Shown: positions 14 through 64,000, counted from the first letter of the stretch. The stretch: 64,000 bases of DNA from a virus (IMGVR_UViG_3300037067_013225:96001-160000), one strand, 5' to 3'. The notes: generated by a model not told the origin, from the sequence alone. Program-made: numbers and translations.

Positions 14-3000
14 ATGCCCACGCTAACTTATGGCTTGTTAAACAAATTCAATGCCGTTGGTGACGGGACTGAGGCTTCTCCCGGTGATTGGAATATAGAG
101 ACTGATAAGGAAATTGTAAGTTTGGATAAACTGATTGATTTCCTAAAAGGTGCCAGCGTCTTTGTCCGGGTTTATCGTTATGATAAATGGAATACATCGG
201 ATGGTTGGCTTAAACCGGAACAAAATGAATGTTACGATGAGCGTTTTATCGGAATCATAGATAATGCGGAACCGATGCCTGTTGGCAATACCAGTTCGGC
301 AATTGCCAAGCAATTTAAGGCGTTGCGAGTTAAAACGTCAGATCTCGCCAGAATAGATGTTTTGCCTATTGAGAGTATGACTACTCCGTTTGCTTTGGCG
401 GATGATACGAAGAACTATCTTTTCCCGCCAGGTATGGGAGCTTATGACGGCTCTGCGGGTCGCGAGAATTGTATTGCTTGGGGACAGGGATCGGGTAACG
501 GGTGGACATTCCAATATCCCATGCATGGTATGCAGGTATTGATCGTAGATGAGAACAAAATTTACACATTTGTTCGCAGCGGTGTTGCGGGGCAACATAT
601 TTATAGCGATAACGGGAACACATCTCATTATACAGATCCGATGGGTTGTTGGACAACGGGTATTGTAGTTGATGATACATCAAATGACGCAGATTTAATT
701 AGTGATGTTCTTCTGACATTCAAAGAGGAAGCTAGCTCTATTTGGTCGCGCACCGAACCGCACACCAAAGATGGCAATATTGCATACGATATAATCAAAT
801 ATCATCTCCATGATTCTATGTACAGTGCGAATCAGAATCATTTGCGTGAATTAAACTGTTGGACGGAGACCACAGCCTCGGCTCTAAAAACTGATATTGT
901 CACAATTCCCCAGATAGCTACAACTGCCGGTTTGACAATAGACTATCCTGTATTTGGTATCAAGCATGCAACTAGCGGATTTGCATCATCGGGCTATAAG
1001 GCCGATGGTACATTGGTTAGTTTTGATTATGCTAAATCACTAGATACGTATGGAGATATTGCGTTACCTTGTACAGATTTATTTAGCAATTTTGTGCGTG
1101 AGCACGGAGTATTCAGACTAATTCGGAACTCGTTTGATCGCGCATTAGATTATGGTATTCGGACAAGTTCTACAACTGATGGAACGCCGAATGTATTGGG
1201 AAGTGGGAGTTTTCCACTAGCACCGCGTAATGCTGGATCTGTTCCATATTTCATTCCTACCAATATCGAAGACCGTGTGTATGATGAATCTGGTTTTGCT
1301 AATTATGGGCATTTGAGTCATCATTATATTTATGAACTTGTTTTCAGAAAGGCAAAAGATGACGTATATAATGTTATTAATATTCTGGAAGATCCTGCTC
1401 GTGCGGAATTAATTACGTCTACGCCAGCACCCAGAATTTATAGCGCTAATTTTGGTGCCGGGTATAATGTGGAACCATATGCTAATACGGCCTATCACTT
1501 TAGTTCTCACATTCCCTCATATAATAGAGCCAACGCCAGATTATTAGTCTTCTTCTATAAGAACCAAGATACGGTAAGTATCGAGAAGTATGCGATTCAG
1601 GCTAAGGGATTGGATGCATATTACAGTGCGACATTAACCAGTTTGGTGGGAGATATTTCCAAACATAATACTTATGAAATAATGTCCTCAGATAGCACAA
1701 ATAATCAAATTACGATCTTAGATACCACAGATATAGTTTGGGAAGACGTATCTCGTCAATCTACAGATGCATATAATGTTATATTCGTTCCATATGGAGC
1801 ATCTGCCGCTGAATGTCCGATTTATCCCGGACAAGCGATTGTAGATCAATATAGTCCGGATAAAAATATCTATGGCTATATTGATAGCATCGAATACTTC
1901 GGTTATACATACAATAGCTCTGAAAGTCCTGGTGTTGATGCTGGAAGATATTATAAATTGAACCTATCCAATGGAAAGCATCTGAATGCTGGTACTTATG
2001 ATGTAATATTTACAGATATTCCCTTAATAACAAAAGTTCCCGAAGACTACACCAGACATGTATTTTATACGTGCGATTATACAGCCGATACAGTTTGGAT
2101 GAACAATCTACAATTCAACTATTATACTCGCAAGGTACTTAAAAATAATAATTCGGTTCTGTATGAACGTGGGAATATTACTGTCACCAATGCGGTATCC
2201 AATACCTATAAAACTTTTGTAAATCGTCATGGTTATACCGTAAAAATTACTCGCGGATTACCGAATTTCTTTAAACCGATACGGATTGCGGATATCTCCA
2301 ATACGGTTATCGCTAGCCAAGTATTTACTGGGACTAATGGATCTTTTTATCAAATGTTCCAGCTTGTCAATAACCAGATGTTACCCGTCAACTCTCGTGC
2401 ATATCAATTGATTGGTTCATTGAATACGATGTTTTTGTGTGTAGATGACACTAAAGACAACAACATATATCAATTGTACAATCCGTCTACGAAATCTATT
2501 GGTGGAGGTATCCCCAATACAGAAATTATTACGGCAGCAAACGTTTCGGAATTTGCGCCCATAACGCAATACGCATATGAATTTGTCAATCCATCTACCT
2601 ACGTATTTAGTATGCTGGACAAGACTTATACCATTTATCCTCCAGATAATCAATTAGATGAATTAGATTTCAATAAGTTAGAACGTGTTTGGGCTGGGAA
2701 TATTGGTGATCGCAATTTCTATTTGGTTAGTCGCGGGACTAAGGGATTCGGTGCGATAGCTGGACATCAAAATGTTAGCGTTGCCGAGATTGAGAATCCG
2801 CAAGGAACATTTTCATATGAGGAAACTTATCCGCAAATTACATTACAGGGAGATGCGCTAGATAATTTCAAAACATACGTTTATGAAGCTCCATCTGGTA
2901 TTCACGTCATTGCATTGGGGTTATGGTACGGTGATTGGCTCGAATATAACAAGACGAATACTAGCAATTTCCTCACCATATACGACTCGTCAGATCAGTA

Positions 3001-6000
3001 TGAATTCGATTACAACCATCCTATTTTCTATAAATATGCTACGCCTATGCCACATTTGTATGAACCTTCTGTGGCAATTTTGAGTAGTAATACGTTGGGA
3101 TTGCCGCATTACAGATATGACGAAGTAACTAAAAATATTGTTCCACTATTCGCCACAACAGATAAGGATGTTGATAATAAACCAAATCAATTTGGCCGAA
3201 CTAATTTCTTCCCCATACCGGATGATTTTGAAAAGCACACACTATACTTATTCCTAAATGAAAAAGCAATTATTAATCACAATCTCTATACTTACGACAG
3301 TGTTACGGGATCTCGCGTGGGTGCGGAAACTCAAAATATTTGGGAGGTCGTTGGGAATCAACTAGATGTAGCATTGCAGGCATCTATAGATGCAGGCTCT
3401 ATAACGGAATTGGAAAAGGGGAATTATAAAGTTCTTGTATTTAATCACCTTATTTCAATGTTGAAAAGTAATCCAATTGCTACTTTTACGTCCAATATTA
3501 AATTCAATATCTCTGCTAGCACACAGATGAAACTAGCGACATTTAATCTGCCATTTAGTAGTAATATCTATTTCATAGCAGGTTTGAATAAGGGATTTAA
3601 TATCGATTTGTCACCATTTGTATCTGGTTATTTTTATAGCAATGAAGATATAAACAAGTGGAATCGTAATCAAACTTTCAGTAATCTTCCGGAGCCACCA
3701 CGTCGGGATGGGAAACCAACAGATTTAGAAATGGTGGAAAGCAGTTTATCTTATGGTATCGATAGAATGTCAAATGAAATTGGCATGCAGAGCGTATATA
3801 GGGGTGTGGCGGGTTATTACGCCAAGGCATTATATACTCAGAAAAATGCGGACTGGGAAACGGTTATAAACAATCTAGCCGGATTCCAACTAGGTCCAAG
3901 CAAGATATTGGGCATGACGGATGCCAACGTTGACGATTGGATTAAGCCAGAATATCTTGATCCTACCAAGTATATATTTAGAATTTCAATTATCACCAAA
4001 CAATATAACGGCAATATCACAAGAAGTTTTATCCCCTCAAATATTGCAGATTTTAACTATTTTGAGCAGACTACTCCAGCATCCGGCTCTAATATTGTTG
4101 TTAATGCGGCATTAAATTGTAACAGTGCATTATTCGATCTCAACCAGTATGAAAAGGTCAGGGTTAAACTTCTTATAGAGAACGGTTCTCAGGCAACACC
4201 CGTTACTCCATATATCACACCTGCTGCCGATTATCAGTGGGTATATCTGGATGACGTGATGCTTGAGGTGTTTGAAATTACCGATCCAGTTACGAATATT
4301 TATTCTAATGACAGAATTGTGGATCGATCTGTTGTGTTTAGCGCATTAGATTATAACAAACTTACTCGTGCATTCGATATCAGATTGGATGATGATCATT
4401 TGAGATTTGTTTCCAGTCATAATGAATTTGCCAGCACTACATCTCCGGGCGATTGGTTTGGAGGTCATATAGCATCTGCGGGTGTCAGTGATACCAATCT
4501 GTATTCTTTCGGGGATCTAGATGAATTCGATGATGATCCTAACGGAATTATTCTAAATGATGGCAATATACCAGCATCATATATTGAGGATAGGATTACT
4601 AACGAGGAACTAATTGATACCGGAGCACCCGTATATCAGTCAAAGATTAATTCCACTATCGGTGTCGGGCGACGAATTAATTATGATTTGTGGAGAACAT
4701 ATCCATATGCAGAGTATCCTTTAACTAGTGATCATAGAGTGTTTAGGGGTAATGGTTCGTCAATCATGCCCACAAGCACATATTTATATCCACTTTCTGA
4801 GACGAAAACATATTCTCTAACGCTCAAAGATACTTTGTCATTACCGGATAGCATAACATTGGATAAGGATTTCTACTATTATGGTGATACAATAACTCAG
4901 GAAGATCTGTTGTTCTATCAAACATTCCAATCCGGCTATTGTGGTATATATCACGGATTCAGACCGAATGCAATGATTGTCGGTCGTAATGCACAAAGCA
5001 ATATGGAAATTCGTCGCGGCTTATATTATTTCGCTATTCCAAATTTACCAGATTATATGAGGTTGCCAAAATGGTTATTAGATAATCCCGATGATATTTA
5101 CTTGGAATGTTGGACGAAGGATGGTTGGCAGCGTTGTCCGATAGAAAAAAGATATCGGGACATCAATATTAGAATGCCGCATTTGCGTCACACACCGATC
5201 ACCAAATCTCGTCCATTCCAGGATGTGATCTATACGGAGGTATTGCCTCTGATTCCTGACGATATTTTGCCCTGCGGACCGGGAACATCAAATCCGTTGC
5301 CATTTGATTTCGGATACACTTTGTCCAATACGGTTTATTATCCCGGTTCTAATATCTATGATATGACAAAGCCGGAAGGATATCGTTGGAGACTATATAA
5401 GCCCGCCTGGGGTACCGATGTTGCGGATTTCAGTGTCCGGCCTATTGGGGGATATTGGTTTAGATTCGTTACATCTATAGGTGGCAATTGTACACCGGAC
5501 GAATACTTTGACGGACAACCCGATACTAGTTTGGCGGAAGAAACCGTGTTATCTTATGCAGTAACGCCGCCATCCGATCCTCGTATCGGTGACAAATATC
5601 TGGTTAAAAGTTCCGCAACTGGATTGTGGAGTGGCTATGATGATGCCGTAATAGAATGGAATTATCTATATAGTAATAGTGATACGGCGGGTTGGATACC
5701 GTTATCCGGATATTCACCGAGTTCACCCGGATTGGGTTATTCGATGATTTATGTTTTGGATGAAATGGCGTTTTATTCATGGGAATCTCCTGGTGGATGG
5801 ACGCTATATACGCCTGAAACAACTGAAATGGTTCCTGTTGCGGGTAATATTGAGAGTAGTACGGGCAGAGATCTTATTTTTAGAGCCTTGCATACGACTC
5901 CACCACAGTTTATCAATATTGCACAATCTGATTGTTGGATTGACGATGTTAATATTGCTGTATTGGACGAATCCAATTATGAAATCAAAATCGTTGTAGC

Positions 6001-6073: not shown

Positions 6074-7839
6074 GCGTTAAAAATCTAAAAATCACAAAGT
6101 ATATATCTACATTTACTCAGGAATATATGAGGAACGGAGGTAATAGCTGGTTGTCTGTGGATCAGGATCACTATATCGAATCTTGTGGTCCAAATCGTCA
6201 ACGACTGAAGAAAGTTCGCTCTCTTAATATCAATAGGGGAAGCCTTTATCCAAATTCTCTTAACGACTCGAATATTGTTTTGCAGAATTCCAACGATACA
6301 TATATTACAACCACAGTTCTCGAATCTTCCAGATTAACGAGCAATAATGTTATTATCTCTTTTAGTGCGAGTGCTTATGAGGTATTTAATATCAATGATT
6401 GGTCTAAGGCATGGCTTGATGCATCTTTGGATTATTTTTATACAGATCTACAGCAATACAATGGGGCTATTCCGCTATATGATAAGCCGAGGGATTTCGA
6501 GATCGTTCGAACGAGTCCATATGAAATTGAAGATGTTCTTGATACAGTATTGTTGGTATTTATAGGCTCTGGTTGTATTGAAATACTTACCAGGAAATCG
6601 GAAGATATATATGGTAATCTTGCCCTAGGAGAAGTTTTTCACAGATTTCTCTCAGAAGGATGGGAGTCTAAATATGGCGTAGAGGCTCTAAAACAATACT
6701 ACACGGATATCAATATAGGGGATAATGCGAGAGACTTTATTCAGAGCAACGAAAATAGAAACTCTGCATTGTCTGCTATAGCGCCGGTAGTTTTGGAGAA
6801 TAGCGGATTCGATGTCGGGAATATTTCCAATGCGATATTAGATAATATGAAATTTTACTATTATACTAAACCTTTACAATCGTCATCTCCATATGCATTT
6901 ACAACGATATATTCATTTGATGGTGTATCTGGATCAACATATAGCGAGACGCAATATCAAGAGATATGTACAAAGAATATTGCATCTATCATTAACGACA
7001 GGCAAAACGTTTCACCCACGTTATCTAATATTTTCTTTGAAGTACCTCAAGTTGACGATTTCGATTACCTGTATTTTAAATTTGATTTTTCTACACTTTT
7101 GAACCTCAAGGATTCTAGAAGATCCATTACATCATATATCAACAATAACTATACTGGTGAAAATTTTGACGAAGATATTGCTCTTACCAAGGTAGGTAAC
7201 GTGATATTCGATTCTATCGGTTTACTTGATTTGCGTTATTATGATCAGAAACTTAACAAATGGATGAGTACAAATATTGTAAACGATACATATTACGCAG
7301 ATCTATATACCGGCACTGGCGAATTATATGATCCATTATTAATTGTTCGTTCTTGTGTTGAGGCTGATGGATATACAAGCGCGACTATATCAACAGCACC
7401 GGATAATTACAATCCATTTTACGACTATGAAAATTCCCGACTAACCATTTATAGTAATACGGATGGGAGTTTAGATTACAAAAATGTTATTTTGAAACTA
7501 GCGGTTAAAGACGGATTTAAAACGCTTATCGTACATGATAATATCGCTTGTAATGAAAAAACACGTCTCAATTATGCTATTGTGGCGATAGATCAACAGT
7601 TTGAAATAGAGGATAAATCGGTTTTCATACCCGAAACTTACGGTAAAAAACTCCTATGGTTGGCAGTTCCGCCTATTGTCCAGCATGTTAATGCTAGTGG
7701 TGGTGTAAGTTTGGCGCAATTCAAGATTGTGGATGATGTTTTCGGTCCCTCTGAATTGACTTTGGCTTATGGCGCGCCACTTTACGGGAAGTTCCCCCTG
7801 GATATTTTTAGAACCCTGAAGTCTATGTGGATTGAATGA
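6070..7839 (+). CDS. Hypothetical virion protein (589 aa)
   Basis: ATGA overlap with the upstream gene; structural context; no motif recognised. Confidence 0.5.
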   Translation: MSVKNLKITKYISTFTQEYMRNGGNSWLSVDQDHYIESCGPNRQRLKKVRSLNINRGSLYPNSLNDSNIVLQNSNDTYITTTVLESSRLTSNNVIISFSASAYEVFNINDWSKAWLDASLDYFYTDLQQYNGAIPLYDKPRDFEIVRTSPYEIEDVLDTVLLVFIGSGCIEILTRKSEDIYGNLALGEVFHRFLSEGWESKYGVEALKQYYTDINIGDNARDFIQSNENRNSALSAIAPVVLENSGFDVGNISNAILDNMKFYYYTKPLQSSSPYAFTTIYSFDGVSGSTYSETQYQEICTKNIASIINDRQNVSPTLSNIFFEVPQVDDFDYLYFKFDFSTLLNLKDSRRSITSYINNNYTGENFDEDIALTKVGNVIFDSIGLLDLRYYDQKLNKWMSTNIVNDTYYADLYTGTGELYDPLLIVRSCVEADGYTSATISTAPDNYNPFYDYENSRLTIYSNTDGSLDYKNVILKLAVKDGFKTLIVHDNIACNEKTRLNYAIVAIDQQFEIEDKSVFIPETYGKKLLWLAVPPIVQHVNASGGVSLAQFKIVDDVFGPSELTLAYGAPLYGKFPLDIFRTLKSMWIE

Positions 7840-9253
7840 TATGTTTAAAGAATTTAAAGATATCGAAAGCGGAACAAGGTATGTTTTTACCGTAGACGAT
7901 TTTCAAGATTTACAAGATTATTATATCAAGAAGATTATTCGACACACACATACGAATATTCCCGCTAACTACGTTAAAATTGCCGATCAAACCGATTTAA
8001 CCAATCCAGTGGGATTAGATATCCCACTGGATGATGATGTTTTAACATTCCAGGATCACGTCACCATAGATCACAGTCTAAATATCCCATCTGGTAGATT
8101 GTTGGCTCGCGGCTGGACTGTTCCGACCAAAGTTCGGTGTGTCGTGACAACGCCCATACACGATACCACAAGTAATTTGCCATTTCCCACTTATAATATG
8201 TCACCATTTAGTATCGAAAAAGATATAAATGGTCTAAATGACCGTACTATTGTGCCTTCGAATAGGCATAATCCTGCCACATATTCAAATTATCGACATT
8301 ATTTGTGGATCATGCCAATGAATGGTGTTTCTTATATCCATCCGAGTCATAAAGCTATTGTGGAGAACCAAACTTCCGCTATTTTTGCCAAAACTCCACT
8401 ATTTATTCATCCATCTAATACAGATTTTTTGAAAAAGATTAATTCTGCAACGAATACTCCAAATTTTAGAGCCTTGTCGTACATTCCAGACTATGCCGAG
8501 GAGAAAGTTTGGTCACTAACTGAGGATTTCACGTGTTGGATGTCCGGATATAAGAGTATTCTAACAAACAATGATATTTCTTTGTTGTTTAACGATTATT
8601 ATAATGAATTCGCGCAAGTTTTATCAACAATTAACTATGAGGAGCTAAACAGAGAGTATTATTTCAGATTAGAAAAGGCCGCTGGTAATTTAATGCGTTT
8701 GGATTGCAATTATGTATCAGATATTACGCGATTAATGGAGGCCAAGGCTCTAGATACAATGGATATTAGTGCGGGCGGCGGGTTAGCTAGAGATTCTATA
8801 GAAAAGCGTATTTTTTCATGTTCCACAAAGGATTATTGTTACAATGTGGATAGAAAAACGCAACGTCTAAAATCCACGCTCTTGGATTCATGTATGGAGA
8901 AGAATGGAAATAATATCACATTTTTCACTAATGGTTTGGCTAATTTTGCAACTATAAACGATACAATTATTGAAAATGAGATTGCGATACCAAAATATTT
9001 TGATAATGGTTATCGTCAATGTCTAGTTATCAATGGTGAGTACGGCACTTCTAGAAAATCTTTCAAAAAACTACATCGTGGCAGAGTTATGTTGGTATAT
9101 CAGATTATTGATGGATTTATGTCGGTTCCTTACGAAATATACTCCTCCGATACAGTAATTTCCAATCGTTCAGCGTCCACTTCCCTTCAAGGCTCTACTA
9201 CTCAGAGGAATTACATTGATGTTCAGTTAATGGGTGATATCGGACTTGACTAA
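7832..9253 (+). CDS. Hypothetical virion/tail-associated protein (473 aa)
   Basis: Coupled ORF in the structural cluster. The start is probably the internal ATG (MFKEF). Confidence 0.5.
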   Translation: MNDMFKEFKDIESGTRYVFTVDDFQDLQDYYIKKIIRHTHTNIPANYVKIADQTDLTNPVGLDIPLDDDVLTFQDHVTIDHSLNIPSGRLLARGWTVPTKVRCVVTTPIHDTTSNLPFPTYNMSPFSIEKDINGLNDRTIVPSNRHNPATYSNYRHYLWIMPMNGVSYIHPSHKAIVENQTSAIFAKTPLFIHPSNTDFLKKINSATNTPNFRALSYIPDYAEEKVWSLTEDFTCWMSGYKSILTNNDISLLFNDYYNEFAQVLSTINYEELNREYYFRLEKAAGNLMRLDCNYVSDITRLMEAKALDTMDISAGGGLARDSIEKRIFSCSTKDYCYNVDRKTQRLKSTLLDSCMEKNGNNITFFTNGLANFATINDTIIENEIAIPKYFDNGYRQCLVINGEYGTSRKSFKKLHRGRVMLVYQIIDGFMSVPYEIYSSDTVISNRSASTSLQGSTTQRNYIDVQLMGDIGLD

Positions 9254-9626
9254 ATTCAAAACATCCCCATTAGGTCCACGCCCATGTGGGAAACCATGTG
9301 GCCGTGTTACGCCACCATTACTAGAGCCAAAACGTAGAGAATATTTCGATCCGGTATTTCAATTGGAGGAGGATGTTTTAACCGATTGTCCGCCGGAAGA
9401 AGAACTTATGGCTCCCACTAATGTACGTTTTAATGGAGTTAATTCTTTTTCTTGGAGTCCAGTAGATGGTGTTGTCGGTTATGAGATATTTAGAGACAAT
9501 CAGACCGAACCGATAATGTTGCTGGATAAATCTGTAACTAACTTTTCCGATATAGATACAACTACGCCGTACCAATATTGGATTAGATCCGTCTATTATT
9601 CGCGTGTATGGCCGCTGGAGGAATAA
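9234..9626 (+). CDS. Small fibronectin type III domain protein
   Basis: APTNV...SWSPVDGVVGYEIFRD...FSD...YQYWIRSV is an Fn3 pattern. Confidence 0.65.
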   Translation: MISDLTKFKTSPLGPRPCGKPCGRVTPPLLEPKRREYFDPVFQLEEDVLTDCPPEEELMAPTNVRFNGVNSFSWSPVDGVVGYEIFRDNQTEPIMLLDKSVTNFSDIDTTTPYQYWIRSVYYSRVWPLEE

Positions 9627-17478: not shown

Positions 17479-17479
17479 C

Positions 17480-17492
17480 AGGGTAAGATAAT
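17480..17492 (+). promoter_or_regulatory. Candidate phage late-promoter element AGGGTAAGATAAT
   Basis: Intergenic, 25 nt before the sheath ATG; an identical 13-mer lies at 41295-41307. Confidence 0.5.
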
Positions 17493-17517
17493 TTTGATAA
17501 AATCATGAGGGTTTACA

Positions 17518-19641: not shown

Positions 19642-19652
19642 GAGGGAAAACA

Positions 19653-20084: not shown

Positions 20085-20087
20085 CAT

Positions 20088-48284: not shown

Positions 48285-48614
48285 CTAGTCTACAATACGG
48301 AAACTGTTTATGAATTCGGCATTAAAATTTGTTAGAGCCTTGCCTGCGGCATCCGTGACATAATATTTGAAGATGATCCCACTTTCGGAATCAATCGGTT
48401 TCAAAAAGAAATAATACAGATTATCATCGGGAATGTTGGAAATATTTTTGCCGAATTTAACAAGATTCATATACAATGCAGAGAGGCTTTTTAATGCATC
48501 ACCTGTCATGCAAAACTTATAAGTATCGTAGGTGTCCACACCTGGCTCTACTACTTCATCATTCAAGCAGTGGAAGTTTAATCCTCTAATATCAGTGACT
48601 ATCAACGATATCAT
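48285..48614 (-). CDS. Hypothetical protein
   Basis: Coupled ORF. Confidence 0.55.
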   Translation of the reverse strand: MISLIVTDIRGLNFHCLNDEVVEPGVDTYDTYKFCMTGDALKSLSALYMNLVKFGKNISNIPDDNLYYFFLKPIDSESGIIFKYYVTDAAGKALTNFNAEFINSFRIVD

Positions 48615-51416: not shown

Positions 51417-51973
51417 TGTTTTTCCAAAATAGATATCGCGCGATGATATTTCGCTTGCTTCCGCTGATATCGGTTCAGATCTTCTCCCGATACTGATGTG
51501 AACAATTTTTCCACTCGTTCAGAATCGGTATTATGTCTAAGATCGGCCAACTTAACATATCCCGCAATCAGATTTTCGCTTGCGGCAATATTATCTATAT
51601 AAGTATCATATTCACAAAAATTATCATGCGTCAAGATATCGATTGTTTCCGCAATCGTGTCTCCAAACAATCCCTTGATAATTTTATATGTATTGGGGAT
51701 TTCTTTACTGCAAGGCTCTACAAATGGGCCATCCTCCCAAGCATCATGCAAATATGCCACTATTGTACAGTCATAATACAATGGATGAATAGTGAATGGC
51801 TTTGCGCTTGACTCCAATATATCTGATACGTGATTAACCACAGCATTGATATGATGCATATATGGCTTTCCCACAAGATCGTGCTGTCCGTAATGATATA
51901 GTTCCGCCATCGACCGAGCCATATCAACCTGGCGTTGTCTGTAACAGTAATCTGTTTCTGAATATTCTGGCAT
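51380..51973 (-). CDS. HD-domain hydrolase, RelA/SpoT-type small alarmone hydrolase-like
   Basis: HYGQHD..GKPYMHH...VAYLHDAWED...LTH...VKLADLRHN. Confidence 0.8.
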   Translation of the reverse strand: MPEYSETDYCYRQRQVDMARSMAELYHYGQHDLVGKPYMHHINAVVNHVSDILESSAKPFTIHPLYYDCTIVAYLHDAWEDGPFVEPCSKEIPNTYKIIKGLFGDTIAETIDILTHDNFCEYDTYIDNIAASENLIAGYVKLADLRHNTDSERVEKLFTSVSGEDLNRYQRKQAKYHRAISILEKQCHIRREKPWSL

Positions 51974-52412: not shown

Positions 52413-54410
52413 TCATTGTGCATATGGATGTCCGTATTTATTGATATATTCTGCGCTAAAATTATACTGATATTCTGGATCTAAATCTGTTGGATATTTA
52501 TCGAACAAAATAATTCCTACACGGCCCTCATTTCGTTGAACATAGATAGAGCAGCCCTTTAAGTTATGTTCATATGCGGCAATATATATTTTCTCTATTT
52601 CTGCCGGTGATGCATTATTCTCGTTAAGATTATATGTTACAGACACAGATGCATCGATCCATTTCTGAATACCTTCCATGAGGGATATTTTTTTGCGCCA
52701 ATTAATTTCATGTGCAACTTTGCATTCTTTTTTTGTGATTGCGGAATCCATTAATGCGATTTTTTCTTGGTCGGTAGATAATAGTTCCGGATCTATTCCG
52801 GTGCGTTCTAGGACAATTTGCCGTGCCACAGGATGTAAAATCAGTTGCCAGCGCCATTCATAGGGATAATTTTTCGGCACCACTCTAGTTCTGCGATAGT
52901 ACCAAGTATCCATGATTGGCTCTACTCCTGATGACGACTTCAATATGATTGATCCCGTACCAACAGGAGGTATTGTCAAACAACATACATTTCTCATTCC
53001 GTATTCGAAATCGCTATATTGGAACGTACCAGAATCGATTAAATGTTTCATAAATCCGGATTTAAATATCGGATGCTGAGAAATGACGTGCTTGGCTCTA
53101 TCAACTTTCCACAAACACCACGGTTTTCCATGAGATGATATAGTAGAATCATCCCATGCCGGATATGGTTCACGTTCTTTAGCCAACTTAATACTCTGTT
53201 TATACGCACCGATACACATTGCGCGAGTTAATTGTTCCGCGATATCGCATGCGCGATCTGAATCGTAAGCTATTCCACAGCGCAATAGATAGTCGGCTAG
53301 CCCGGTATATCCTACGCCAACACGACGCAATGCTTCTAAATCCTTGCGCTGTATAACTGTGGGACAGCGATCATCTCTAAGCTGGCAGGATACCGTGTTA
53401 TCTAGGAAATGTAATATTTCTCCCGCACGTGATTCTACCAACACCAAGGCTTTATCAAGATCGATTGGAAGATCGGCTAGATTAATATTGGATAACACAC
53501 ATGACGATCCATTTGATAGGATTTCCTCCGAGCAGCCATTAACCGATGCTATAGGATATCCTATGGCATCACTGTTGGACATGCGTTGTGATGTAGACCA
53601 ATATAATAACCCAGGTTCAGCATGTTCGTATGCATTCTGGGCGATTAGCTTCATTAATTTGCGTGCTTTAATAGTTTTGTATATTTTGTTGTCGAAGGTT
53701 AGATCCCATGTTGCGTTCTTTTTATACGCTTCGAAAAATGCATTGCTTATTTTTATGGAAATGTTAGCGGATTGAATTTTAGTATAGTCGCTTTTAACCG
53801 TAATAAATTCTTCTATATCGGGATGATTATCGTCAATGCATAATAGAAGCGCGCCGCGCCTATTGTGCGCGGCGATCAATCCGGTTGTTTGACTAAATAG
53901 TTGCATCCATGAAACCGCACCGGTGGAGGTTTTTGCCGCATTGTGTGTGGGTGATCCAGCGGGACGTAGAGCGGTCATGTCATAGCCAAGCCCTTCTCCG
54001 CGAGAACTGACTTTGGCGGTAATATATGCGGCTTCAAATATCCCTTCTAATGAATCTGCCTCTATGGGATCTCCGTTTCTATCTACGCCCAATGCGAATC
54101 CGGTGCAATTAATTAGAGATGTTTTGTCGGTATTTCCTGCACCATATATGATGCGTCCACCCGGAATAAATTCGCGATTGAACATCATTGAAAACCATTT
54201 TAGAGCCTTGGCCTGTTGTGAAGCTTTGTCTGGCTCTACTGATGCTATATATGTAGCTATACGCCAAAATACTTCGCCGGGAGTTTCTTTTGTTCCATCG
54301 GGCTTATCTAGGGCATATTTGCGATTAAATACATCTATTGCAAATTGATCGTGATTGAAATATTCTTCCGTTGTGATTGCTATTTCTGTCGGTTGCGATT
54401 GCTGTGTCAA
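52413..54410 (-). CDS. nrdJ: Class II (adenosylcobalamin-dependent) ribonucleotide reductase, catalytic subunit
   Basis: FIPGGRI, SLINC, GAVSWM, RRGA, HPDIEEFITVK, ANISI, AEPGL, NGCSE, SCVLSNINL, RRVGVGYTGLAD, QKWIDASVSVTYN, LKGCSIY. An NrdJb-like gene is nearby and no nrdB is in the window. Confidence 0.85.
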   Translation of the reverse strand: MTQQSQPTEIAITTEEYFNHDQFAIDVFNRKYALDKPDGTKETPGEVFWRIATYIASVEPDKASQQAKALKWFSMMFNREFIPGGRIIYGAGNTDKTSLINCTGFALGVDRNGDPIEADSLEGIFEAAYITAKVSSRGEGLGYDMTALRPAGSPTHNAAKTSTGAVSWMQLFSQTTGLIAAHNRRGALLLCIDDNHPDIEEFITVKSDYTKIQSANISIKISNAFFEAYKKNATWDLTFDNKIYKTIKARKLMKLIAQNAYEHAEPGLLYWSTSQRMSNSDAIGYPIASVNGCSEEILSNGSSCVLSNINLADLPIDLDKALVLVESRAGEILHFLDNTVSCQLRDDRCPTVIQRKDLEALRRVGVGYTGLADYLLRCGIAYDSDRACDIAEQLTRAMCIGAYKQSIKLAKEREPYPAWDDSTISSHGKPWCLWKVDRAKHVISQHPIFKSGFMKHLIDSGTFQYSDFEYGMRNVCCLTIPPVGTGSIILKSSSGVEPIMDTWYYRRTRVVPKNYPYEWRWQLILHPVARQIVLERTGIDPELLSTDQEKIALMDSAITKKECKVAHEINWRKKISLMEGIQKWIDASVSVTYNLNENNASPAEIEKIYIAAYEHNLKGCSIYVQRNEGRVGIILFDKYPTDLDPEYQYNFSAEYINKYGHPYAQ

Positions 54411-55709: not shown

Positions 55710-55889
55710 TTATCCTTTCCTTGAAAGATCCCTAGATTGTTCTCTTACTTTTGATGCGAAATCCCCACCCAGCGGCTCTAATAAATCTTCACTTTGCGTT
55801 TCATAAATATATAATTCCTCCATACAATTGGGACATATGCCATCATACATACGGCATCCGCAATCTTCGCAATAACTATATGTGGACAT
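55710..55889 (-). CDS. Small zinc-ribbon ORF not in the track (59 aa, MSTYSYCEDCGCRMYDGICPNCMEE...)
   Basis: Translated by hand; AGGAGAG RBS; abuts the next gene. Confidence 0.65.
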   Translation of the reverse strand: MSTYSYCEDCGCRMYDGICPNCMEELYIYETQSEDLLEPLGGDFASKVREQSRDLSRKG

Positions 55890-56613
55890 GTTCTCTCCTT
55901 AGAAATAGCTTTTCTGTAGCCTTTTTAGAGGCAATATCTTTCGTTAATGACGAACAAACATTCTGAGACCACAAACATACCCAATCTGGCGGTGCGTTAT
56001 ATTCGGAGACAAAAACCGGATTAGTTTGCGATTGGATATTGCACCACTCCCAAAATTCATCATGCGAAAAAGGTATTTCATACTGTGTGCTATTTTGATA
56101 TGGCGGATCGCAATACACTAGGGTATTTTTGGGTATGAATAGATCTTTGTAATTCATAGATATAAATTTTACGGTTTGAATATGTGGTAATTGTTTTAAT
56201 ACGTTATTTTTGCTTTCTAGACAGTGATTTCTTGGATCGCCATTCTTATTCTTACTTCGTGCATATCCACCAAACCACTTTCCCGCATAAGAACATCCCA
56301 CACCGATAAAACCAATATTAGCGGCAATGTCACGTTCTTTGGCGAATGATTCGCGACTTAGCAATCTATAGAAATTGTAAGTTTTTTCATCCAAGTCATC
56401 GGGTGGTATCCATCCGTTTTGTAGAGCCTGGAACATTTTTATTACGTAGATATTGATATCATTGCCGATGCGATTGAAAGTGGGAGGCACTTTTTCGATT
56501 AGATTAGCACCTCCCACGAAGGGTTCTAGCCAATTGGCGCGATTTGGCGCATATTTGAGCATTACCTGGATAAGCTCAGCCGCATATTTGGATTTCGAAC
56601 CCATGTACTTCAT
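55876..56613 (-). CDS. D12-class (Dam-like) N6-adenine DNA methyltransferase
   Basis: MKYMGSK, EPFVGGAN, VYCDPPY, VFVSEY. Confidence 0.9.
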   Translation of the reverse strand: MKYMGSKSKYAAELIQVMLKYAPNRANWLEPFVGGANLIEKVPPTFNRIGNDINIYVIKMFQALQNGWIPPDDLDEKTYNFYRLLSRESFAKERDIAANIGFIGVGCSYAGKWFGGYARSKNKNGDPRNHCLESKNNVLKQLPHIQTVKFISMNYKDLFIPKNTLVYCDPPYQNSTQYEIPFSHDEFWEWCNIQSQTNPVFVSEYNAPPDWVCLWSQNVCSSLTKDIASKKATEKLFLRREHVHI

Positions 56614-57759: not shown

Positions 57760-58095
57760 TCACTCCTCTCCGCAATTTTCACATTTCACCATAGCGGGAT
57801 TTATTAGCGAGGTTTGTATTGCGTTAATAAATCCGCATTTTCTGCATCTAAAAAATTTCCAATATATCACCGCTGGAAAGATCGGTATCAGCATCAAGGC
57901 TCTACAAAAAGCTACTAAACCAATCACTCCGCCATTATATAGGGCCAAATACCAAAATCCATATCGGCTCAAAACAACCATACCCCATCCGTATGCGGTT
58001 ATGGTTACTACCATTATACCATAAGCTAGTGCAAAAAGCAAGGCTATTTGGAGGCAATATTGTAGAGCGCTGGCTGCGCCAGATGTAAGTTTCAT
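57760..58095 (-). CDS. Membrane protein with a C-terminal zinc ribbon
   Basis: Hydrophobic helices followed by CRKC...CENC. Confidence 0.6.
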   Translation of the reverse strand: MKLTSGAASALQYCLQIALLFALAYGIMVVTITAYGWGMVVLSRYGFWYLALYNGGVIGLVAFCRALMLIPIFPAVIYWKFFRCRKCGFINAIQTSLINPAMVKCENCGEE

Positions 58096-58420: not shown

Positions 58421-59001
58421 TAGAAGTCAATCTCCCAAAATTCTTTTTCAAACCATATCGCTTGCCGTGCAAGATCGGCATAATCTATGCCTGGGATGCC
58501 ATCCGTGGCAGAAACGTAGCTATCAAAATGGAGAGCGCTAGCATAAATGATAGATTTAACGGCCCAAGCGGGGCTAGTATAGAGGAGGGAGTCAAATTTT
58601 CTAATCTCATCGAGAACAGTTTTGGCAGTCTCAACGCTTCGATCCGTTCCATTGATCCAGGCATTCGCCCACGAGACGAACACAGGATCATTGCAGACTT
58701 TTAATGCGCATTGAATTGCAAACCACTGACGCTGAACAAGAGTGAATTCTGGCACATGGGTCTCTCGCAAAAGTGTGAACTTACCGCTAGAGCGCAGAGG
58801 ATGGTTCATTTCTCCCGATGCTTCAAAAATCCTAGGGTGGTCGAATTTCACATATGCGGGTTGTACAAGCACCGCTAGCTCCGGACTGGTATAGGCACGA
58901 CCACAATATATTTCACCGATTTCAACCGGAGTACCATTGGGGATATTCCCAGCTATAACCACATATGAAATTTTCTCACACATATTTAATACGCGCTCCA
59001 T
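58420..59001 (-). CDS. Paralog family member B (FWEIDF tag)
   Basis: Shares the PELAVL...RIFEASG...FTLLRET.VPEFTLVQRQWFAIQCAL...WANAWI.GTDRS core. Confidence 0.75.
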   Translation of the reverse strand: MERVLNMCEKISYVVIAGNIPNGTPVEIGEIYCGRAYTSPELAVLVQPAYVKFDHPRIFEASGEMNHPLRSSGKFTLLRETHVPEFTLVQRQWFAIQCALKVCNDPVFVSWANAWINGTDRSVETAKTVLDEIRKFDSLLYTSPAWAVKSIIYASALHFDSYVSATDGIPGIDYADLARQAIWFEKEFWEIDF

Positions 59002-62000
59002 AAACCTCTCTCAGCCAATGTAGTGTTGGTTCGTCAATATAGCCGGTTGTTTTTACCTCTCGTCTCGTTCTCCCCACAACAGAATAAATCACGATATCGC
59101 AATCTCCGGTTGGTAAATCCTCCAGCAGTGGCTCTACAAATTCATCTGCAACACGTATCATTAATGTAGAACCTTGGGGTTCCCATAAGTTTAGTTGTGA
59201 TGGGTCTTGTATTTTTACTCTACATGATGGCAAATATATATCGCCATCTTCACCGCATTCTGTGCTCAATTGTCCAGATATCGTTATAGGTAGACGTTCT
59301 TTTTTCGCCCGTGTTAAAATATCTATTTTCTCTTCCACAACCTTACTGAATCCAATAGCTTTTAAATTTTGCAATCCATCCGTTATTATAATATTCACAT
59401 ATGGAGATTTATTCTTTTTCGTTGCTTCGATGCTAAAATCTTCCACAAATCCGATAACACTAATATGTGGTGCAATATTGTTCAAAACGTCCGATGGTTT
59501 GATATACGATAGTTGCTTAAAGCATGCGTGTGCCATATACGGATTATATGTGAAGAAATCGCCCAAAACATCATATTCGGCATAAGCTTGATCATCTTGA
59601 GTCGTAACGATAGTTGTACCGGTTAATAACGATAATGCATCATCACGACCGCACAAAGTATCAAAAGCACCCGCATTAATTAATGCCTCAACAACGCGCT
59701 TGTTGCATTGGCGTTTGGGTACGCGAGTTATGAAATCGTCCACAGATGAAAAGGGACGCAGTTCTAGAAGTATTTTTAGAGCCGCAGGTCCAACACCTTT
59801 GATTCCCCCCAAACCAATACGTATAGCTGGATCAGGATCATATTCCACCGTATAGGATTGTCCGGAAGTATTGATGTTGGGCAAAAGTAAGCGATATCCG
59901 CCTTGACGAATATTATTTACAACACCCTTAATTTCTTCCGATTTGCCAATATATGAGTTTAATACAGCGCAATAGAACTCTGTTGGAAAATAATGTTTCA
60001 ACCAAAGCGTCTTATATGCTAGGGCCGCATAAGACATTGCGTGGCCCATGTTGAATGCATATAGCGCAGCATCTTTGATTTGTTTTACGATGTACTCGAT
60101 TTGATTGTGCGTATAGCCATTTTTGATAGCGCCTTGTTCGAAATCGTCCAACAGCAAGGCCATCTTTTCGGGAATTTTTTTCCCGCAAGCACTTCGGAGA
60201 TCGTCTGCTTTTGCTGGTGTAAAACCGGCTATTTTTTTGGCAATTTCCATAATTTGTTCCTGATATACCATAATGCCGCGAGAGCTTTTTAATAGCTGAT
60301 TTAGAGCGGATATTTTGTGTTTAAATCCACCCTTGACATATTGATCTGCCCAACCAGACATAGATACACCAGGGCGGATGATTGAGATTACATCTGCCAA
60401 TTCCAACTCATTTTTTGGATTTGTCGCTCGATAGTATTTTTGAGCCAAAGCGGAGCTTAATTGGAAGATATTATCTAAGCCATGTTCCGCCGCTAAAACA
60501 CTCGTATCGGAAAAGTCCGAATATTCCGGTATGATTTGCTCAGCGTGGCGCTGTTTGATGAAGTGTTCTGCTTCTTCGATTACGGTAACATTGCGTAGTC
60601 CGAGGAAATCAAACTTGATTTGTTTAGTAAATTTCTCTACCGATTCCATATCGAATTCAATCACCGGGAAAGCATCCTCATCACCTCGTCGCACAGGTAC
60701 AATATGATCGATATTGGTGCGACTCATAACGATACCAGATGCATGAATGCCGCGCGCGGAATATCCACCCTCAAGAGGTTTGGCGAGTTGAACAACTTTC
60801 TGTAGATTGTTTCTTGTAATGAAATCGGCCACTTGTTTTTGTTTAATATTCCAATCCAGACTTACTAAATTCCGTGTTCCCGGTTCGCTTTCCGTTAATA
60901 GTTCTGTGAATTCGTTCATGGTGGTAGCAGATACGCCCAATGCTGTCCCTACCGCCTTGACGGCGGTTTTAACAGTATAGCGCAGGTGCGTCCCCAAGTG
61001 GTAAACATGCCCGTAAGTTTCACTTAGATGCTCTAAGAATCTATCTCTACCAGTCCTAGATATATCACAATCGATATCTATCATGGATGTGTATGTACGT
61101 TTGCCATTTTCTATTTTGATACGGCCTTCGTTTAGAAATCGCGCAAAATCTAAATTATAATGAACCGGATCGAATGCCGTGATACCGCATAAATAATTAA
61201 CCAACGAGCTTGCACTGCTACCTCTCGATGGACCTGTAGCGATATGATTATTCCGGCACCAATCTAGTTCATCTGCGACGATTAACAGATAATTAGAGAA
61301 GCCGAAATCTGCGATGATTTTAAGCTCTTCTTTTAGACGTTCATTATATTGGGGGATGTTGAGAGATTTTTTTTCTAGAGCCAAGGCGCATTTTGCTGCC
61401 AAAATGGTAGATGCCGTTTCTTCATCTAGTACGGTATCGTTTAATTTAAATTGGGGCAGATTGTAATCTTCTACCGATGGATTAAATATCTCTATGCGAT
61501 CTGCTATTTCTCCACTTTGATGGACATATTTATCATCAAATTGATCGAGCATTTCTTGCTCGCTCTTGAAATAAAACGATTCGTCATAGACATATACGAA
61601 ATTTTTATCGCCAAGCTTTTTAGATTGTTTTTTGGATAGGAGGATTTTATGAGTATCTAGATGCGACGGTTCGACAAAATGAACGTCGTTTGTGGCGACT
61701 ACAGGTAGGCTATATTTTCCAGCTAAAGCGATTATTTGCGCATTAAGTGGTTCTTGGATATCTACGGATGGATGTTTTTGCACTTCTAAATAAAAGCGGT
61801 CTTTGAAAATATCATTCCACCGTTGTAAGCGTTCCTCAGCCTCCAAGGCTCTATCATCTTTCAATAATTTGCATATCAGTCCTCCCACACATGCACTTAA
61901 GCTTATTATCCCCTCATTATGTTGTTCTATTTCATTCCACGATATTCTCGGTCTGTAATAAAATCCCTCAGTATTAGCTATGGAGGAGAGTTTTACCAGA

Positions 62001-62296
62001 TTATGATACCCTGAGAGATTCTCTGCAAGTAATACTACGTGAGAATATTCTTTGGATTTTTGTTCTTTTTGCTGATTTAATGCTATGTCGGAGAAATAGA
62101 ATTCCGCTCCGAATATGGGTTTGATGTTATGTTTCGATGCCGATTTGTATAATTCTGCAAACGGTGACACAGTTCCATGTTCAGTTAAGGCTACCGCTGG
62201 CATATTTAGTGCGGCGGCTTTGGCGCAAATAGCATCTACACTGCCGAGAGCATCGTTCAAGCTATGTGTAGAATGATGGTGCAACGATATATACAT
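58976..62296 (-). CDS. dnaE: DNA polymerase III alpha subunit (family C)
   Basis: PHP domain (LHHHSTHSLND, ALTEHG, KPIFGAE, VVATNDVHF), GPSRGS, FARFLN, DIDCD, GIHASG, KFDFLGL, YQEQIM, YAFNMGHA, GLGGIKGVG. Confidence 0.95.
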   Translation of the reverse strand: MYISLHHHSTHSLNDALGSVDAICAKAAALNMPAVALTEHGTVSPFAELYKSASKHNIKPIFGAEFYFSDIALNQQKEQKSKEYSHVVLLAENLSGYHNLVKLSSIANTEGFYYRPRISWNEIEQHNEGIISLSACVGGLICKLLKDDRALEAEERLQRWNDIFKDRFYLEVQKHPSVDIQEPLNAQIIALAGKYSLPVVATNDVHFVEPSHLDTHKILLSKKQSKKLGDKNFVYVYDESFYFKSEQEMLDQFDDKYVHQSGEIADRIEIFNPSVEDYNLPQFKLNDTVLDEETASTILAAKCALALEKKSLNIPQYNERLKEELKIIADFGFSNYLLIVADELDWCRNNHIATGPSRGSSASSLVNYLCGITAFDPVHYNLDFARFLNEGRIKIENGKRTYTSMIDIDCDISRTGRDRFLEHLSETYGHVYHLGTHLRYTVKTAVKAVGTALGVSATTMNEFTELLTESEPGTRNLVSLDWNIKQKQVADFITRNNLQKVVQLAKPLEGGYSARGIHASGIVMSRTNIDHIVPVRRGDEDAFPVIEFDMESVEKFTKQIKFDFLGLRNVTVIEEAEHFIKQRHAEQIIPEYSDFSDTSVLAAEHGLDNIFQLSSALAQKYYRATNPKNELELADVISIIRPGVSMSGWADQYVKGGFKHKISALNQLLKSSRGIMVYQEQIMEIAKKIAGFTPAKADDLRSACGKKIPEKMALLLDDFEQGAIKNGYTHNQIEYIVKQIKDAALYAFNMGHAMSYAALAYKTLWLKHYFPTEFYCAVLNSYIGKSEEIKGVVNNIRQGGYRLLLPNINTSGQSYTVEYDPDPAIRIGLGGIKGVGPAALKILLELRPFSSVDDFITRVPKRQCNKRVVEALINAGAFDTLCGRDDALSLLTGTTIVTTQDDQAYAEYDVLGDFFTYNPYMAHACFKQLSYIKPSDVLNNIAPHISVIGFVEDFSIEATKKNKSPYVNIIITDGLQNLKAIGFSKVVEEKIDILTRAKKERLPITISGQLSTECGEDGDIYLPSCRVKIQDPSQLNLWEPQGSTLMIRVADEFVEPLLEDLPTGDCDIVIYSVVGRTRREVKTTGYIDEPTLHWLREVYGARIKYV

Positions 62297-63224: not shown

Positions 63225-64000
63225 TGCCCATTCGGGTGGATTTTGTATGTTTTGTAAACAGCTTCAGGAAACTGGTCGAAATAGGTTGTGGTCATATAAT
63301 CCTTCATATAAACGACTATGATTTTGGTATTTTTCACATCCAAATTTGTCCAAAACGATCCGTTAAAACATCCATCCGTAAATACATACGCGATACGGCC
63401 ATAGTCGCGATTATAATTGCCCTGATTTGTTAGATGTTCCATCCAACAATCATTTGTTCCACCGGATGTTTGAAATTTGTTATTCGCGATATCGGATTCG
63501 CTGCATTTATAAACGAATGTCGAAAAAGCATATACTTCATCGAAATAATCGATATTATATCGGATAGAATCAAAAAATATCTTATGATATGCATCAGTAG
63601 AGCCGGATACATCAAAATAAGCTGTTACGTAAAGATTCATATCCGGTAATGGACATTTAAAAAATGGTTGATGTACACGCATGGCACCATAAAGAGCTAG
63701 TTTACGATCTTTATGATGGGGGAATACGCGCCTGGTGGAACGATCTCCTCTGATTTTTAGAAAATCCTTTTCTAGTGTTTGCTTTAACCCAACCGGTGTT
63801 GAAACAATTGGAATATCTTGTGTTGGATCGTGATGATATTCGGAGAAAAATTCATCAACTATCTCCTCATACAAAGTCGTGGCTGTTGGATCGCAACCTT
63901 GAGATCCCTTTTTAGCTTTTCTGGTTCCAGGTTTTTGTCCCGACTCAGAAAGTTCCTTCAACGCTTCTGCAATGGCGGATTGTATTTCCGGATCGATAAT
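63209..64000 (-). CDS. VWA-like (MIDAS) domain protein, DUF2201-type; 5' end lies outside the window
   Basis: FDVSGS, SGGT and VFTDG motifs; the reading frame stays open from 63961 to the window edge. Confidence 0.75.
   Translation of the reverse strand: MIDPEIQSAIAEALKELSESGQKPGTRKAKKGSQGCDPTATTLYEEIVDEFFSEYHHDPTQDIPIVSTPVGLKQTLEKDFLKIRGDRSTRRVFPHHKDRKLALYGAMRVHQPFFKCPLPDMNLYVTAYFDVSGSTDAYHKIFFDSIRYNIDYFDEVYAFSTFVYKCSESDIANNKFQTSGGTNDCWMEHLTNQGNYNRDYGRIAYVFTDGCFNGSFWTNLDVKNTKIIVVYMKDYMTTTYFDQFPEAVYKTYKIHPNGQWDEC

Follow-up and report, generated by a model that had tools for sequence, protein, structure and literature searches.

GGCTCTA, a selected DNA word with orientation-specific spacing on both strands of an uncultured jumbo phage genome

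What reads a short, asymmetric DNA word that a virus has written into its genome about once per kilobase, on both strands? This question is raised by a 64,000-nucleotide stretch of viral DNA, hereafter referred to as the window, which comprises bases 96001-160000 of the 202,677-bp virus record IMGVR_UViG_3300037067_013225 and in which the heptamer GGCTCTA and its extended form, the 10-mer CAAGGCTCTA, recur from end to end. Core copies were located by exact search for GGCTCTA/TAGAGCC and full 10-mers by exact search for CAAGGCTCTA (Table 1); positions are given in window coordinates unless preceded by "genome", which denotes coordinates of the record. The record is linear, 91% complete according to CheckV, and may miss about 9% of the genome. 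Its computed G+C content of 39.9% agrees with the value of about 39% that had been estimated by eye in the original prediction, in which the word was first described from the window.

The window contains 59 copies of GGCTCTA/TAGAGCC (36 on the + and 23 on the - strand) compared to 3.9±2.2 (maximum 13) in dinucleotide shuffles, and 21 exact copies of CAAGGCTCTA (14 + and 7 -) compared to 0.03 expected from the same shuffles. The original prediction had counted 58 core copies (35 + and 23 -) as a lower bound, had placed all 21 10-mers correctly, and had named gaps at 16.8-21.0 kb and 33.4-37.0 kb as the longest ones, which we measured at 16774-21041 (4,267 bp) and 33439-37030. In the whole record, the heptamer is present in 186 copies (109 + and 77 -) where 12 are predicted by composition, corresponding to an enrichment of about 15-fold. 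When synonymous codons were swapped within each gene, keeping the proteins and the per-gene codon usage, the whole genome yielded 44±4 copies of GGCTCTA (maximum 54), which places the observed number 35 standard deviations (SD) above this null, and 7±1 copies of CAAGGCTCTA compared to 47 observed. GGCTCTA is also the most over-represented heptamer of the genome (z ~50), the next unrelated word being CGATATC (z ~25). The original prediction had named two outcomes that would speak against a signal, namely loss of the enrichment in a shuffle of this kind and equal enrichment of many other words; because of the codon-shuffle and heptamer-rank results, neither of them applies. Copies are found in every 10-kb bin, with both strands evenly represented, and, as had been stated, in both early and late regions. 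The claim that the word is not strand-polarised holds at genome scale, as there is no switch of polarity along the genome. Much of the mild + excess may come from the frames that are forbidden by TAG/TAA stops; yet genes on the + and on the - strand alike have about 59% of their copies in + orientation, so that there may be a small residual strand preference.

The full consensus of the word reads C-A-A-[not G]-GGCTCTA-n-W-A-A-A. The core is preceded by G in 0 of the 186 copies, with C being preferred at -3 and A at -1; downstream of it, G is rare at +1, A/T accounts for 75% of the copies at +2 and A occupies +3, +4 and +5 in 74%, 58% and 52%, respectively, G being disfavoured, which bears out the nWA flank noted earlier. 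The softest position of the core is its first G. The looser core GCTCTA is present in 291 copies compared to 55 expected, and the preceding base is G in 186, C in 51, T in 33 and A in 21 of them. None of the one-mismatch neighbours of GGCTCTA is clearly depleted; since conversion bias needs a strongly depleted neighbour of this type, it was rejected as the origin of the word.

With genes called greedily as longest open reading frames (ORFs), 90 copies are in sense and 77 in antisense orientation within genes, and 19 are intergenic. Four frames are used, encoding GS[TIN], xAL, [VLI]EP and xRA, and the remaining frames are unused because the word would create a stop there; the earlier remark that several frames and orientations are involved and that no single peptide explains the copies thus extends to the whole genome. 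Whether a gene lies on the + strand (74:53) or on the - strand (24:16) makes no difference to the orientation of the word, for which reason a signal at the level of RNA or transcription was rejected. In comparison to orthologues of the complete relative G001 described below, the residues encoded by the word are 37.7% identical versus 44.6% elsewhere, with a mean BLOSUM score of 1.5 versus 2.3. Because these residues are less conserved, the word appears to be kept at some protein cost, and because its copies lie in four frames, sense and antisense, it acts at the level of DNA. GGCTCTA is, in other words, a selected DNA-level word.

The arrangement of the copies indicates how this word is read. 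Gaps between all copies are more even than chance, with a coefficient of variation (CV) of 0.80 compared to a 1st percentile of 0.85 in simulations, and the CVs of the individual strands, 0.65 and 0.73, are under the 1st percentile of their simulations (~0.8). The smallest same-strand gap is 176 bp on the + and 301 bp on the - strand, and orientation alternates between successive copies 109 times compared to 90±7. Pairs of copies in the same orientation number 0 within 100 bp, 5 within 300 bp and 46 within 1 kb, where 8.8, 26 and 86.5 are expected (p<0.001), whereas pairs in opposite orientation number 4, 24 and 84 within the same distances, where 8.4, 25 and 83 are expected. This avoidance of each other by same-orientation copies, with opposite-orientation pairs at chance, is new here. 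The looser core GCTCTA obeys the rule as well; it is absent from the control words CGATAT, ACCAGA and CTTGAC, and from GATATC, an enriched palindrome. The two orientations are thus independent sets, each self-spacing to about 1 kb, with mean per-strand spacings of 1.9 and 2.6 kb for the heptamer and 1.3 and 1.5 kb for GCTCTA. That same-orientation copies repel each other and opposite ones are placed independently argues for a reader that distinguishes orientation; the word is probably read directionally, by a strand-specific or tracking enzyme, with one copy serving about 1 kb. The spacing argues against orientation-blind uses such as genome organisation, an architecture for packaging or ejection, or a receptor of the DNA-uptake type. 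From the self-mark idea of the original prediction, the selected DNA-level mark on the phage genome is therefore retained, whereas genome organisation, packaging and ejection lose ground to the orientation-specific spacing.

Some further features of the word and of similar signals were recorded. Tail-to-tail inverted pairs of the form TAGAGC-N(9-40)-GCTCTA occur 9 times compared to 3.9 expected, at genome 6758, 11778, 15893, 26200, 29564, 135028, 150201, 175369 and 196590; two of them fall in the window (39028-39056 and 54201-54238). Several of these pairs are situated just past gene ends or between convergent genes, where hairpins are possible. CCAAGG, the 5' flank of the word, is itself self-complementary. 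In two paralogous intergenic regions (genome 7932 and 19104), GGCTCTATGAA is found about 21 nt upstream of the extended -10 element TGCTATAAT, and a separate family of early promoters has the form CTTGACATTCGCGC...GCTATAAT. G001 contains 33 copies of GGGTATAATA, mostly intergenic and on one strand, which looks like a promoter -10 element.

Homologues of the tail sheath, the portal and an archaeo-eukaryotic primase (AEP) define a small clade of uncultured phages. The closest relatives are two contigs of the Joint Genome Institute (JGI) of 134 kb and 17.8 kb (58% sheath and 68% AEP identity), and the sole complete relative compared, G001, has 220,861 bp, 31.7% G+C, 45% sheath identity and 79 reciprocal-best genes with the phage of the window (G000). 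In G001, GGCTCTA is not enriched (10 copies) and GCTCTA is at the codon-shuffle null (75 versus 73.5). The same shuffle revealed enrichment of GCTCTT (281 versus 137±10) and of CTCTTYAT(C) (219 versus 78±5) in this genome, on both strands and in several frames, the full word being GCTCTT(YATC). Pairs of GCTCTT in the same orientation are reduced to 35 versus 55 within 300 bp (p=0.005) and to 146 versus 183 within 1 kb, compared to 55 versus 52 for opposite-orientation pairs. Thus, the spacing rule is the same in G001, although the word differs. In orthologous genes, a site of one phage coincides with a site of the other in 2 cases compared to 1.7 expected, meaning that there is no positional homology, and in the conserved sugar-gene cluster that they share each phage carries its own word. 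Among the partial genomes, phage B contains CCGCTCTA (9 versus 0.5 expected) and also CCCTCTAAA, and L155 contains the variants AGGCTCTA, AGACTCTA and AGGTTCTA; a relative with 48% G+C showed no word variant in 10 kb. The element common to these dialects is a CTCT(A/T) core. A scan of viral contigs with a 14-base pattern gave single copies only among the matches listed, a complete scan of IMG/VR for the 16-mer CAAGGCTCTACAAAAA yielded 38 single matches, without an enriched or related contig among them, and a literature search for the word itself found nothing. That the word is selected and lineage-specific is firmly supported.

The carrier of the word is a tailed jumbo phage. Its record encodes a tail sheath, baseplate, fibre, HK97-type capsid, portal and large terminase, together with a replication and recombination module consisting of a DnaE-type polymerase, an AEP primase-polymerase (Prim-Pol), a DnaB-like helicase, a Rad52-like annealing protein, a PD-(D/E)XK/Cas4-like nuclease, an SbcCD/Mre11-Rad50-like pair (Metallophos and SMC_N proteins) and a sigma-70-like factor. 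The reading that we favour, albeit tentatively, is that priming of the lagging strand by the replisome of the phage itself starts preferentially at the copies. This replisome would consist of the AEP Prim-Pol, a DnaB-like helicase without a DnaG-type partner and the DnaE polymerase. A template core 5'-GCTCT-3', rich in pyrimidines and followed by an A (T in G001) that is not copied, would direct a purine-started primer 5'-AGAGC-3', and by writing the word into its genome the phage would offer such a site every 1.3-2.6 kb on each template strand, which is about the length of an Okazaki fragment. Relatives would have drifted to dialects that keep the CTCT core, and a primase needing such a long word would prime phage DNA far more often than DNA without the word. 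We regard as rather doubtful the stronger proposal that the clade possesses a private priming code, in which lagging strands start only at a word of 6-10 nt (GCTCTA here and GCTCTT in G001), placed on both strands at intervals of 1-2 kb, and in which word and reader drift jointly as dialects.

In line with initiation by the phage's own primase, the AEP domain (PF22548), DnaB_C and DnaE were all found in the record, and the AEP is its only recognisable primase, as a six-frame search of the record yielded neither a DnaG zinc ribbon nor Toprim_4. The AEP protein is homologous to the Prim-Pol domain of Marinitoga CAPP, with matches that include a primer-initiation complex (7nqd, E 6e-20, and 7p9j), in agreement with Foldseek, and its gene is conserved in relatives with 68, 45 and 44% identity. 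Primases of this family read template words via a helix-bundle domain, such as GTG in the case of pRN1 ORF904, and the Prim-Pol of phage NrS-1 reads GTG as well as the 8-nt word TTTGGTTA (PMC8718748).

Several points weigh against such a role in priming. The structure model of the AEP protein is poor, with a mean predicted local distance difference test (pLDDT) score of 59, and only its match to the Prim-Pol core was used; of the helix-bundle domain that would read the word, three confident C-terminal helices give a suggestive hint. As the record is 91% complete, the remainder of the genome could encode a primase of the DnaG type. The genomes at hand are too few for co-variation between primase and word, and they are assembled contigs in which the ends of molecules are invisible. 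A Chi-like signal would account for the spacing, the strand independence and the dialects just as well. Moreover, the primase sites of other systems are not known to exceed 5 nt, and we know of no precedent for a requirement of 7-10 nt in routine lagging-strand priming. Routine primase sites named in PMC8718748 and PMC2910064 comprise 3-5 nt, and for the 8-nt site of NrS-1 a use at the origin, rather than in Okazaki priming, has been suggested (PMC8718748).

A Chi-like signal would make a helicase-nuclease that processes DNA ends, either RecBCD/AddAB of the host or a phage enzyme that has escaped recognition, change over from degrading DNA to recombining or protecting it. The enzyme would track one way and read one strand, each orientation would guard one entry side and a close second copy would add little, a prediction that the orientation-specific spacing matches. 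The word is also short, asymmetric and strongly over-represented, and the dialects could mirror different hosts. Its A-rich 3' flank at +3 to +5 is reminiscent of E. coli Chi, where A/G is preferred at nucleotides 4-7 of the 3' flank (PMC5041463), and is similar in kind, with G disfavoured here and a different register. We nevertheless consider this explanation unlikely. GGCTCTA is unlike known Chi sequences, which are G-rich; the record encodes no UvrD/RecB-type helicase; and the IMG/VR scan with the 16-mer revealed no other phage enriched in the word. Some phages, namely LLS, MD8 and relatives, are documented to stock the Chi of their host at a density of about 1 per 1.9 kb, but their sites are nearly all in one orientation (20:3 and 32:0) and clustered toward one DNA end, and they carry no recombination module of their own (PMC12315714), whereas the phage described here shows a 109:77 split, a uniform distribution and no polarity switch, and encodes its own recombination set with the Rad52-like protein, the PD-(D/E)XK/Cas4-like nuclease and the SbcCD/Mre11-Rad50-like pair. 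An orientation-blind self-mark on double-stranded DNA (dsDNA), i.e. a word of the type of DNA uptake sequences (DUS) or uptake signal sequences (USS) that the host has as well, or the binding site of a protein with an architectural, packaging or protective role, would accumulate through selection or recombination-linked drive. Its appeal lies in the density of about 1 per kb in both orientations, the core with its AT-rich flank, the overall evenness (CV 0.80), the position of the copies at less conserved protein positions, the dialects and the excess of tail-to-tail inverted pairs, some of them at gene ends, all of which are traits of USS and DUS. For an orientation-blind reader, though, any near copy would be redundant, yet opposite copies show no avoidance at any distance while same-orientation ones are about 5-fold depleted within 300 bp; in addition, it is not obvious how uptake could drive a build-up of the word in a lytic jumbo phage, and no other accessible phage contig shares the word, which makes this explanation improbable.

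An asymmetric site whose two orientations act independently would also suit a phage enzyme that methylates or nicks one strand of the word, be it for a strand choice as in mismatch repair, for clamp loading in late transcription or for nicks of the T5 type. The phage encodes a D12-class adenine methylase and three HNH nucleases, and the absence of 17 palindromic hexamers attests to extreme restriction pressure. Restriction-linked sites are, however, normally depleted rather than enriched in phages, and T5-type nicks fall on one strand only, whereas GGCTCTA occupies both. G001 follows the spacing rule too but has no counterpart of the D12 methylase, which was the only methylase found in a search that gave no N6_N4 methylase and did not include the C5 family. 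Furthermore, there is no avoidance between opposite-strand copies at distances of 14-100 bp (4 within 100 bp), where simultaneous nicks would break the genome. We regard a modification or strand-discrimination site as very unlikely, and the methylation-linked alternative of the original prediction accordingly remains unsupported. Least credible, indeed barely so, is a word without function, arising as a by-product of codon usage, amino-acid content, palindrome avoidance or a bias of mutation or repair. The genome is heavily shaped by word avoidance, and the codon shuffle alone lifts the expectation from 12 to 44 copies, but the observed number exceeds even this null by far, with copies occupying four frames in either orientation; a passive bias would not lead copies of one orientation to avoid each other; no depleted neighbour points to conversion bias; and G001 enriches a different word with its GCTCTA at the null. 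A passive by-product is thus largely refuted by the codon shuffle, the pair spacing and the comparison with G001.

Table 1 Copies of the word and genes of the candidate readers and the D12-class methylase. Coordinates refer to the window unless marked as genome.
Feature	Coordinates	Strand	Remark
GGCTCTA core copy	880..886	+	
GGCTCTA core copy	1525..1531	-	
GGCTCTA core copy	3395..3401	+	
GGCTCTA core copy	4085..4091	+	
Full 10-mer CAAGGCTCTA	5881..5890	-	
GGCTCTA core copy	6684..6690	+	
Full 10-mer CAAGGCTCTA	8467..8476	-	
Full 10-mer CAAGGCTCTA	8743..8752	+	
Full 10-mer CAAGGCTCTA	9188..9197	+	
GGCTCTA core copy	9322..9328	-	
GGCTCTA core copy	11062..11068	+	
GGCTCTA core copy	13987..13993	-	
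Full 10-mer CAAGGCTCTA	14835..14844	+	
GGCTCTA core copy	16463..16469	+	
GGCTCTA core copy	16774..16780	+	Left edge of longest gap (4,267 bp)
GGCTCTA core copy	21041..21047	-	Right edge of longest gap
GGCTCTA core copy	21716..21722	-	
GGCTCTA core copy	21876..21882	+	
GGCTCTA core copy	24371..24377	+	
Full 10-mer CAAGGCTCTA	24793..24802	+	
GGCTCTA core copy	25405..25411	-	
Full 10-mer CAAGGCTCTA	25987..25996	+	
Full 10-mer CAAGGCTCTA	26302..26311	+	
GGCTCTA core copy	26632..26638	-	
GGCTCTA core copy	28921..28927	+	
GGCTCTA core copy	30624..30630	-	
Full 10-mer CAAGGCTCTA	31303..31312	+	
Full 10-mer CAAGGCTCTA	31871..31880	+	
GGCTCTA core copy	32804..32810	+	
GGCTCTA core copy	32947..32953	-	
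Full 10-mer CAAGGCTCTA	33439..33448	-	
Full 10-mer CAAGGCTCTA	37030..37039	-	
GGCTCTA core copy	37883..37889	+	
Full 10-mer CAAGGCTCTA	38511..38520	+	
Full 10-mer CAAGGCTCTA	39028..39037	-	Left arm of inverted pair with GCTCTA 39051-39056 (genome 135028-135056)
GGCTCTA core copy	40012..40018	+	
GGCTCTA core copy	41015..41021	-	
GGCTCTA core copy	41131..41137	+	
GGCTCTA core copy	42536..42542	-	
Full 10-mer CAAGGCTCTA	42786..42795	+	
GGCTCTA core copy	44888..44894	-	
Full 10-mer CAAGGCTCTA	45056..45065	+	
Full 10-mer CAAGGCTCTA	48333..48342	-	
GGCTCTA core copy	48544..48550	+	
GGCTCTA core copy	49641..49647	+	
GGCTCTA core copy	49857..49863	+	
Full 10-mer CAAGGCTCTA	51711..51720	+	
GGCTCTA core copy	52918..52924	+	176 bp to next + copy, closest same-strand pair of the genome
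GGCTCTA core copy	53094..53100	+	
Full 10-mer CAAGGCTCTA	54201..54210	-	Tail-to-tail with + copy 31 bp away
GGCTCTA core copy	54232..54238	+	Partner of 54201 copy
GGCTCTA core copy	55774..55780	+	
GGCTCTA core copy	56422..56428	-	
Full 10-mer CAAGGCTCTA	57895..57904	+	
GGCTCTA core copy	59130..59136	+	
GGCTCTA core copy	59777..59783	-	
GGCTCTA core copy	61376..61382	-	
Full 10-mer CAAGGCTCTA	61844..61853	+	
GGCTCTA core copy	63598..63604	-	
DnaE-type (Pol III alpha) DNA polymerase gene	58976..62296	-	Part of phage replisome
AEP Prim-Pol gene	genome 163420-164337 (outside window)		Candidate reader
DnaB-like helicase gene	genome 170407-171624 (outside window)		Candidate reader
D12-class adenine methylase gene	55876-56613	-	

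In addition to the genes already mentioned, the phage encodes a ribonucleotide reductase, a LAGLIDADG nuclease and a large sugar-modification cluster. The same phage DNA is present in groundwater and landfill metagenomes, with identical copies in two landfill runs. With regard to the host, intergenic promoters have canonical TTGACA/TATAAT elements and there are Shine-Dalgarno signals, which argue only against a Bacteroidota host, given the promoter traits of that group. Megablast of 20 kb against public phage records found no close relative, tblastn of the sheath against phage records gave a 26% match to a Lactobacillus phage as the sole match, and the DnaE matches in phage records were all at about 30% identity and carried no information on the host; none of the phage records searched is a cultured relative. 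The capsule-synthesis gene led to viral clusters only in a protein atlas, without a host lead, and a scan of genome contigs with the DegT aminotransferase found one archaeal and one Nitrospirota metagenome-assembled genome (39% and 28% identity), which gave no usable host lineage.

The sugar-modification set is located at genome 70972-82945, outside the window, and at 36843-39176 and 44762-45718 within it, and includes the DegT aminotransferase, several glycosyl- and methyltransferases, a DUF4910/M28 peptidase-like protein and the capsule-synthesis protein. It is the block that is best conserved in G001 (55-70% identity, above most structural genes) and could serve glycosylation of the virion or of DNA. 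Further cargo genes outside the window encode an arginyl-tRNA-synthetase-like protein, a Ro60/TROVE-vWA protein and a patatin-like phospholipase (genome 2381-3811, 32577-34109 and 40973-41914), and the sole tRNA of the record is a tRNA-Lys(UUU) at genome 200486-200558. The fibre gene at 33945-36251 contains collagen repeats, and at 34680-35700 alternative joints, skips and back-steps are numerous in the contigs of the two landfill runs, which suggests repeat-number variants or assembly collapse. Of 279 predicted proteins, 45, mostly small and early, end in [E/M]-[I/V]-D-F directly before the stop; examples in the window are the genes ending at 49027, 56973, 58103, 58420, 62296 and 62898 (-). 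The codons of this C-terminal tag differ (GAA/GAG, ATT/ATC/ATA, GAT/GAC and TTT/TTC), the palindromic 12-mer GAAATCGATTTC being one codon choice for EIDF, and because of this variation the tag belongs to the protein level and is not a DNA word.

The palindromic hexamers that have 0 copies in the 203-kb genome, with 19-58 copies expected for each, are AGGCCT, AGTACT, CAGCTG, CCCGGG, CCGCGG, CGATCG, CGGCCG, CGTACG, CTCGAG, CTGCAG, GAGCTC, GCCGGC, GGCGCC, GGGCCC, GTCGAC, GTGCAC and TGGCCA, and GGATCC is present in 1 copy where about 45 are expected. All sizeable loci of relatives (L151-L155) lack nearly the same set and G001 lacks several more, while the 48% G+C relative contains 3 copies from the set in about 10 kb; restriction-site avoidance is clade-wide and unusually broad. 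Other palindromes are enriched, namely GATATC about 3-fold (319 sites compared to about 104 by composition and about 173 by codon shuffle), with gaps that are not even (CV 1.07), and GCTAGC and TCTAGA 2.3-2.6-fold. In G001, there is no match to the D12 methylase and GATATC is not enriched.

What the phage presents, then, is an asymmetric word on both strands, kept at kilobase intervals and at some protein cost, and a relative spaces a different word by the same rule. Should the phage primase or another enzyme of replication or recombination be the reader, the word would represent a self-recognition code for viral DNA, and such a code would, if true, account for similar unexplained words in other uncultured phages. 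Comparing the numbers of same- and opposite-orientation pairs is a cheap test that may separate directional from orientation-blind readers in any genome, and the spacing rule may reveal directional reading of the unexplained hyper-abundant words of other phages. To our knowledge, genome-wide iterated words are few (Chi, uptake sequences and HIP1), and in phages only the accumulation of Chi is documented; each of these words has taught something about the handling of DNA in cells.

Set against these systems, GGCTCTA shares with HIP1 (GCGATCGC) of cyanobacteria and cyanophages its hyper-abundance, its unclear function and its presence in phages, but HIP1 is a palindrome whereas GGCTCTA is asymmetric and not self-complementary, and the HIP1 core CGATCG has 0 copies in this genome. 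In three IMG/VR contigs with distant DnaE homologues (L010, L005 and L030), CGATCGC is present in 24-61 copies per 22 kb compared to 1-2 expected, and because the HIP1 core is so abundant, these contigs are probably cyanophages loaded with the palindrome of their host. GGCTCTA differs in sequence and phage group from the hyper-abundant words TCCAGAA, AGCGCCAG and AGTACT, which are quoted here unchecked. The DUS of Neisseriaceae and the USS of Pasteurellaceae resemble it in their frequency of about 1 per kb, both orientations, a core with an AT-rich flank and dialects; they are, however, orientation-blind dsDNA words of competent bacteria, whereas here a phage of lytic type shows orientation-specific spacing. 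Chi-rich phages (E. coli LLS and relatives, and P. aeruginosa MD8) likewise have a short asymmetric word as their most abundant oligomer, at 1 per 1-2 kb, written into coding sequence and read directionally; their word is the Chi of the host (PMC12315714). Primase sites, such as the GTC-based pentamers that the T7 gp4 primase reads according to PMC2910064, comprise 3-5 nt without genome-wide enrichment, whereas GGCTCTA extends over 7-10 nt and is enriched about 15-fold. They are, as GGCTCTA would be on the priming model, words of the template strand, read in one orientation, needed at intervals of about a kilobase on each strand, and built around a pyrimidine-containing core that would give rise to a purine-started primer.

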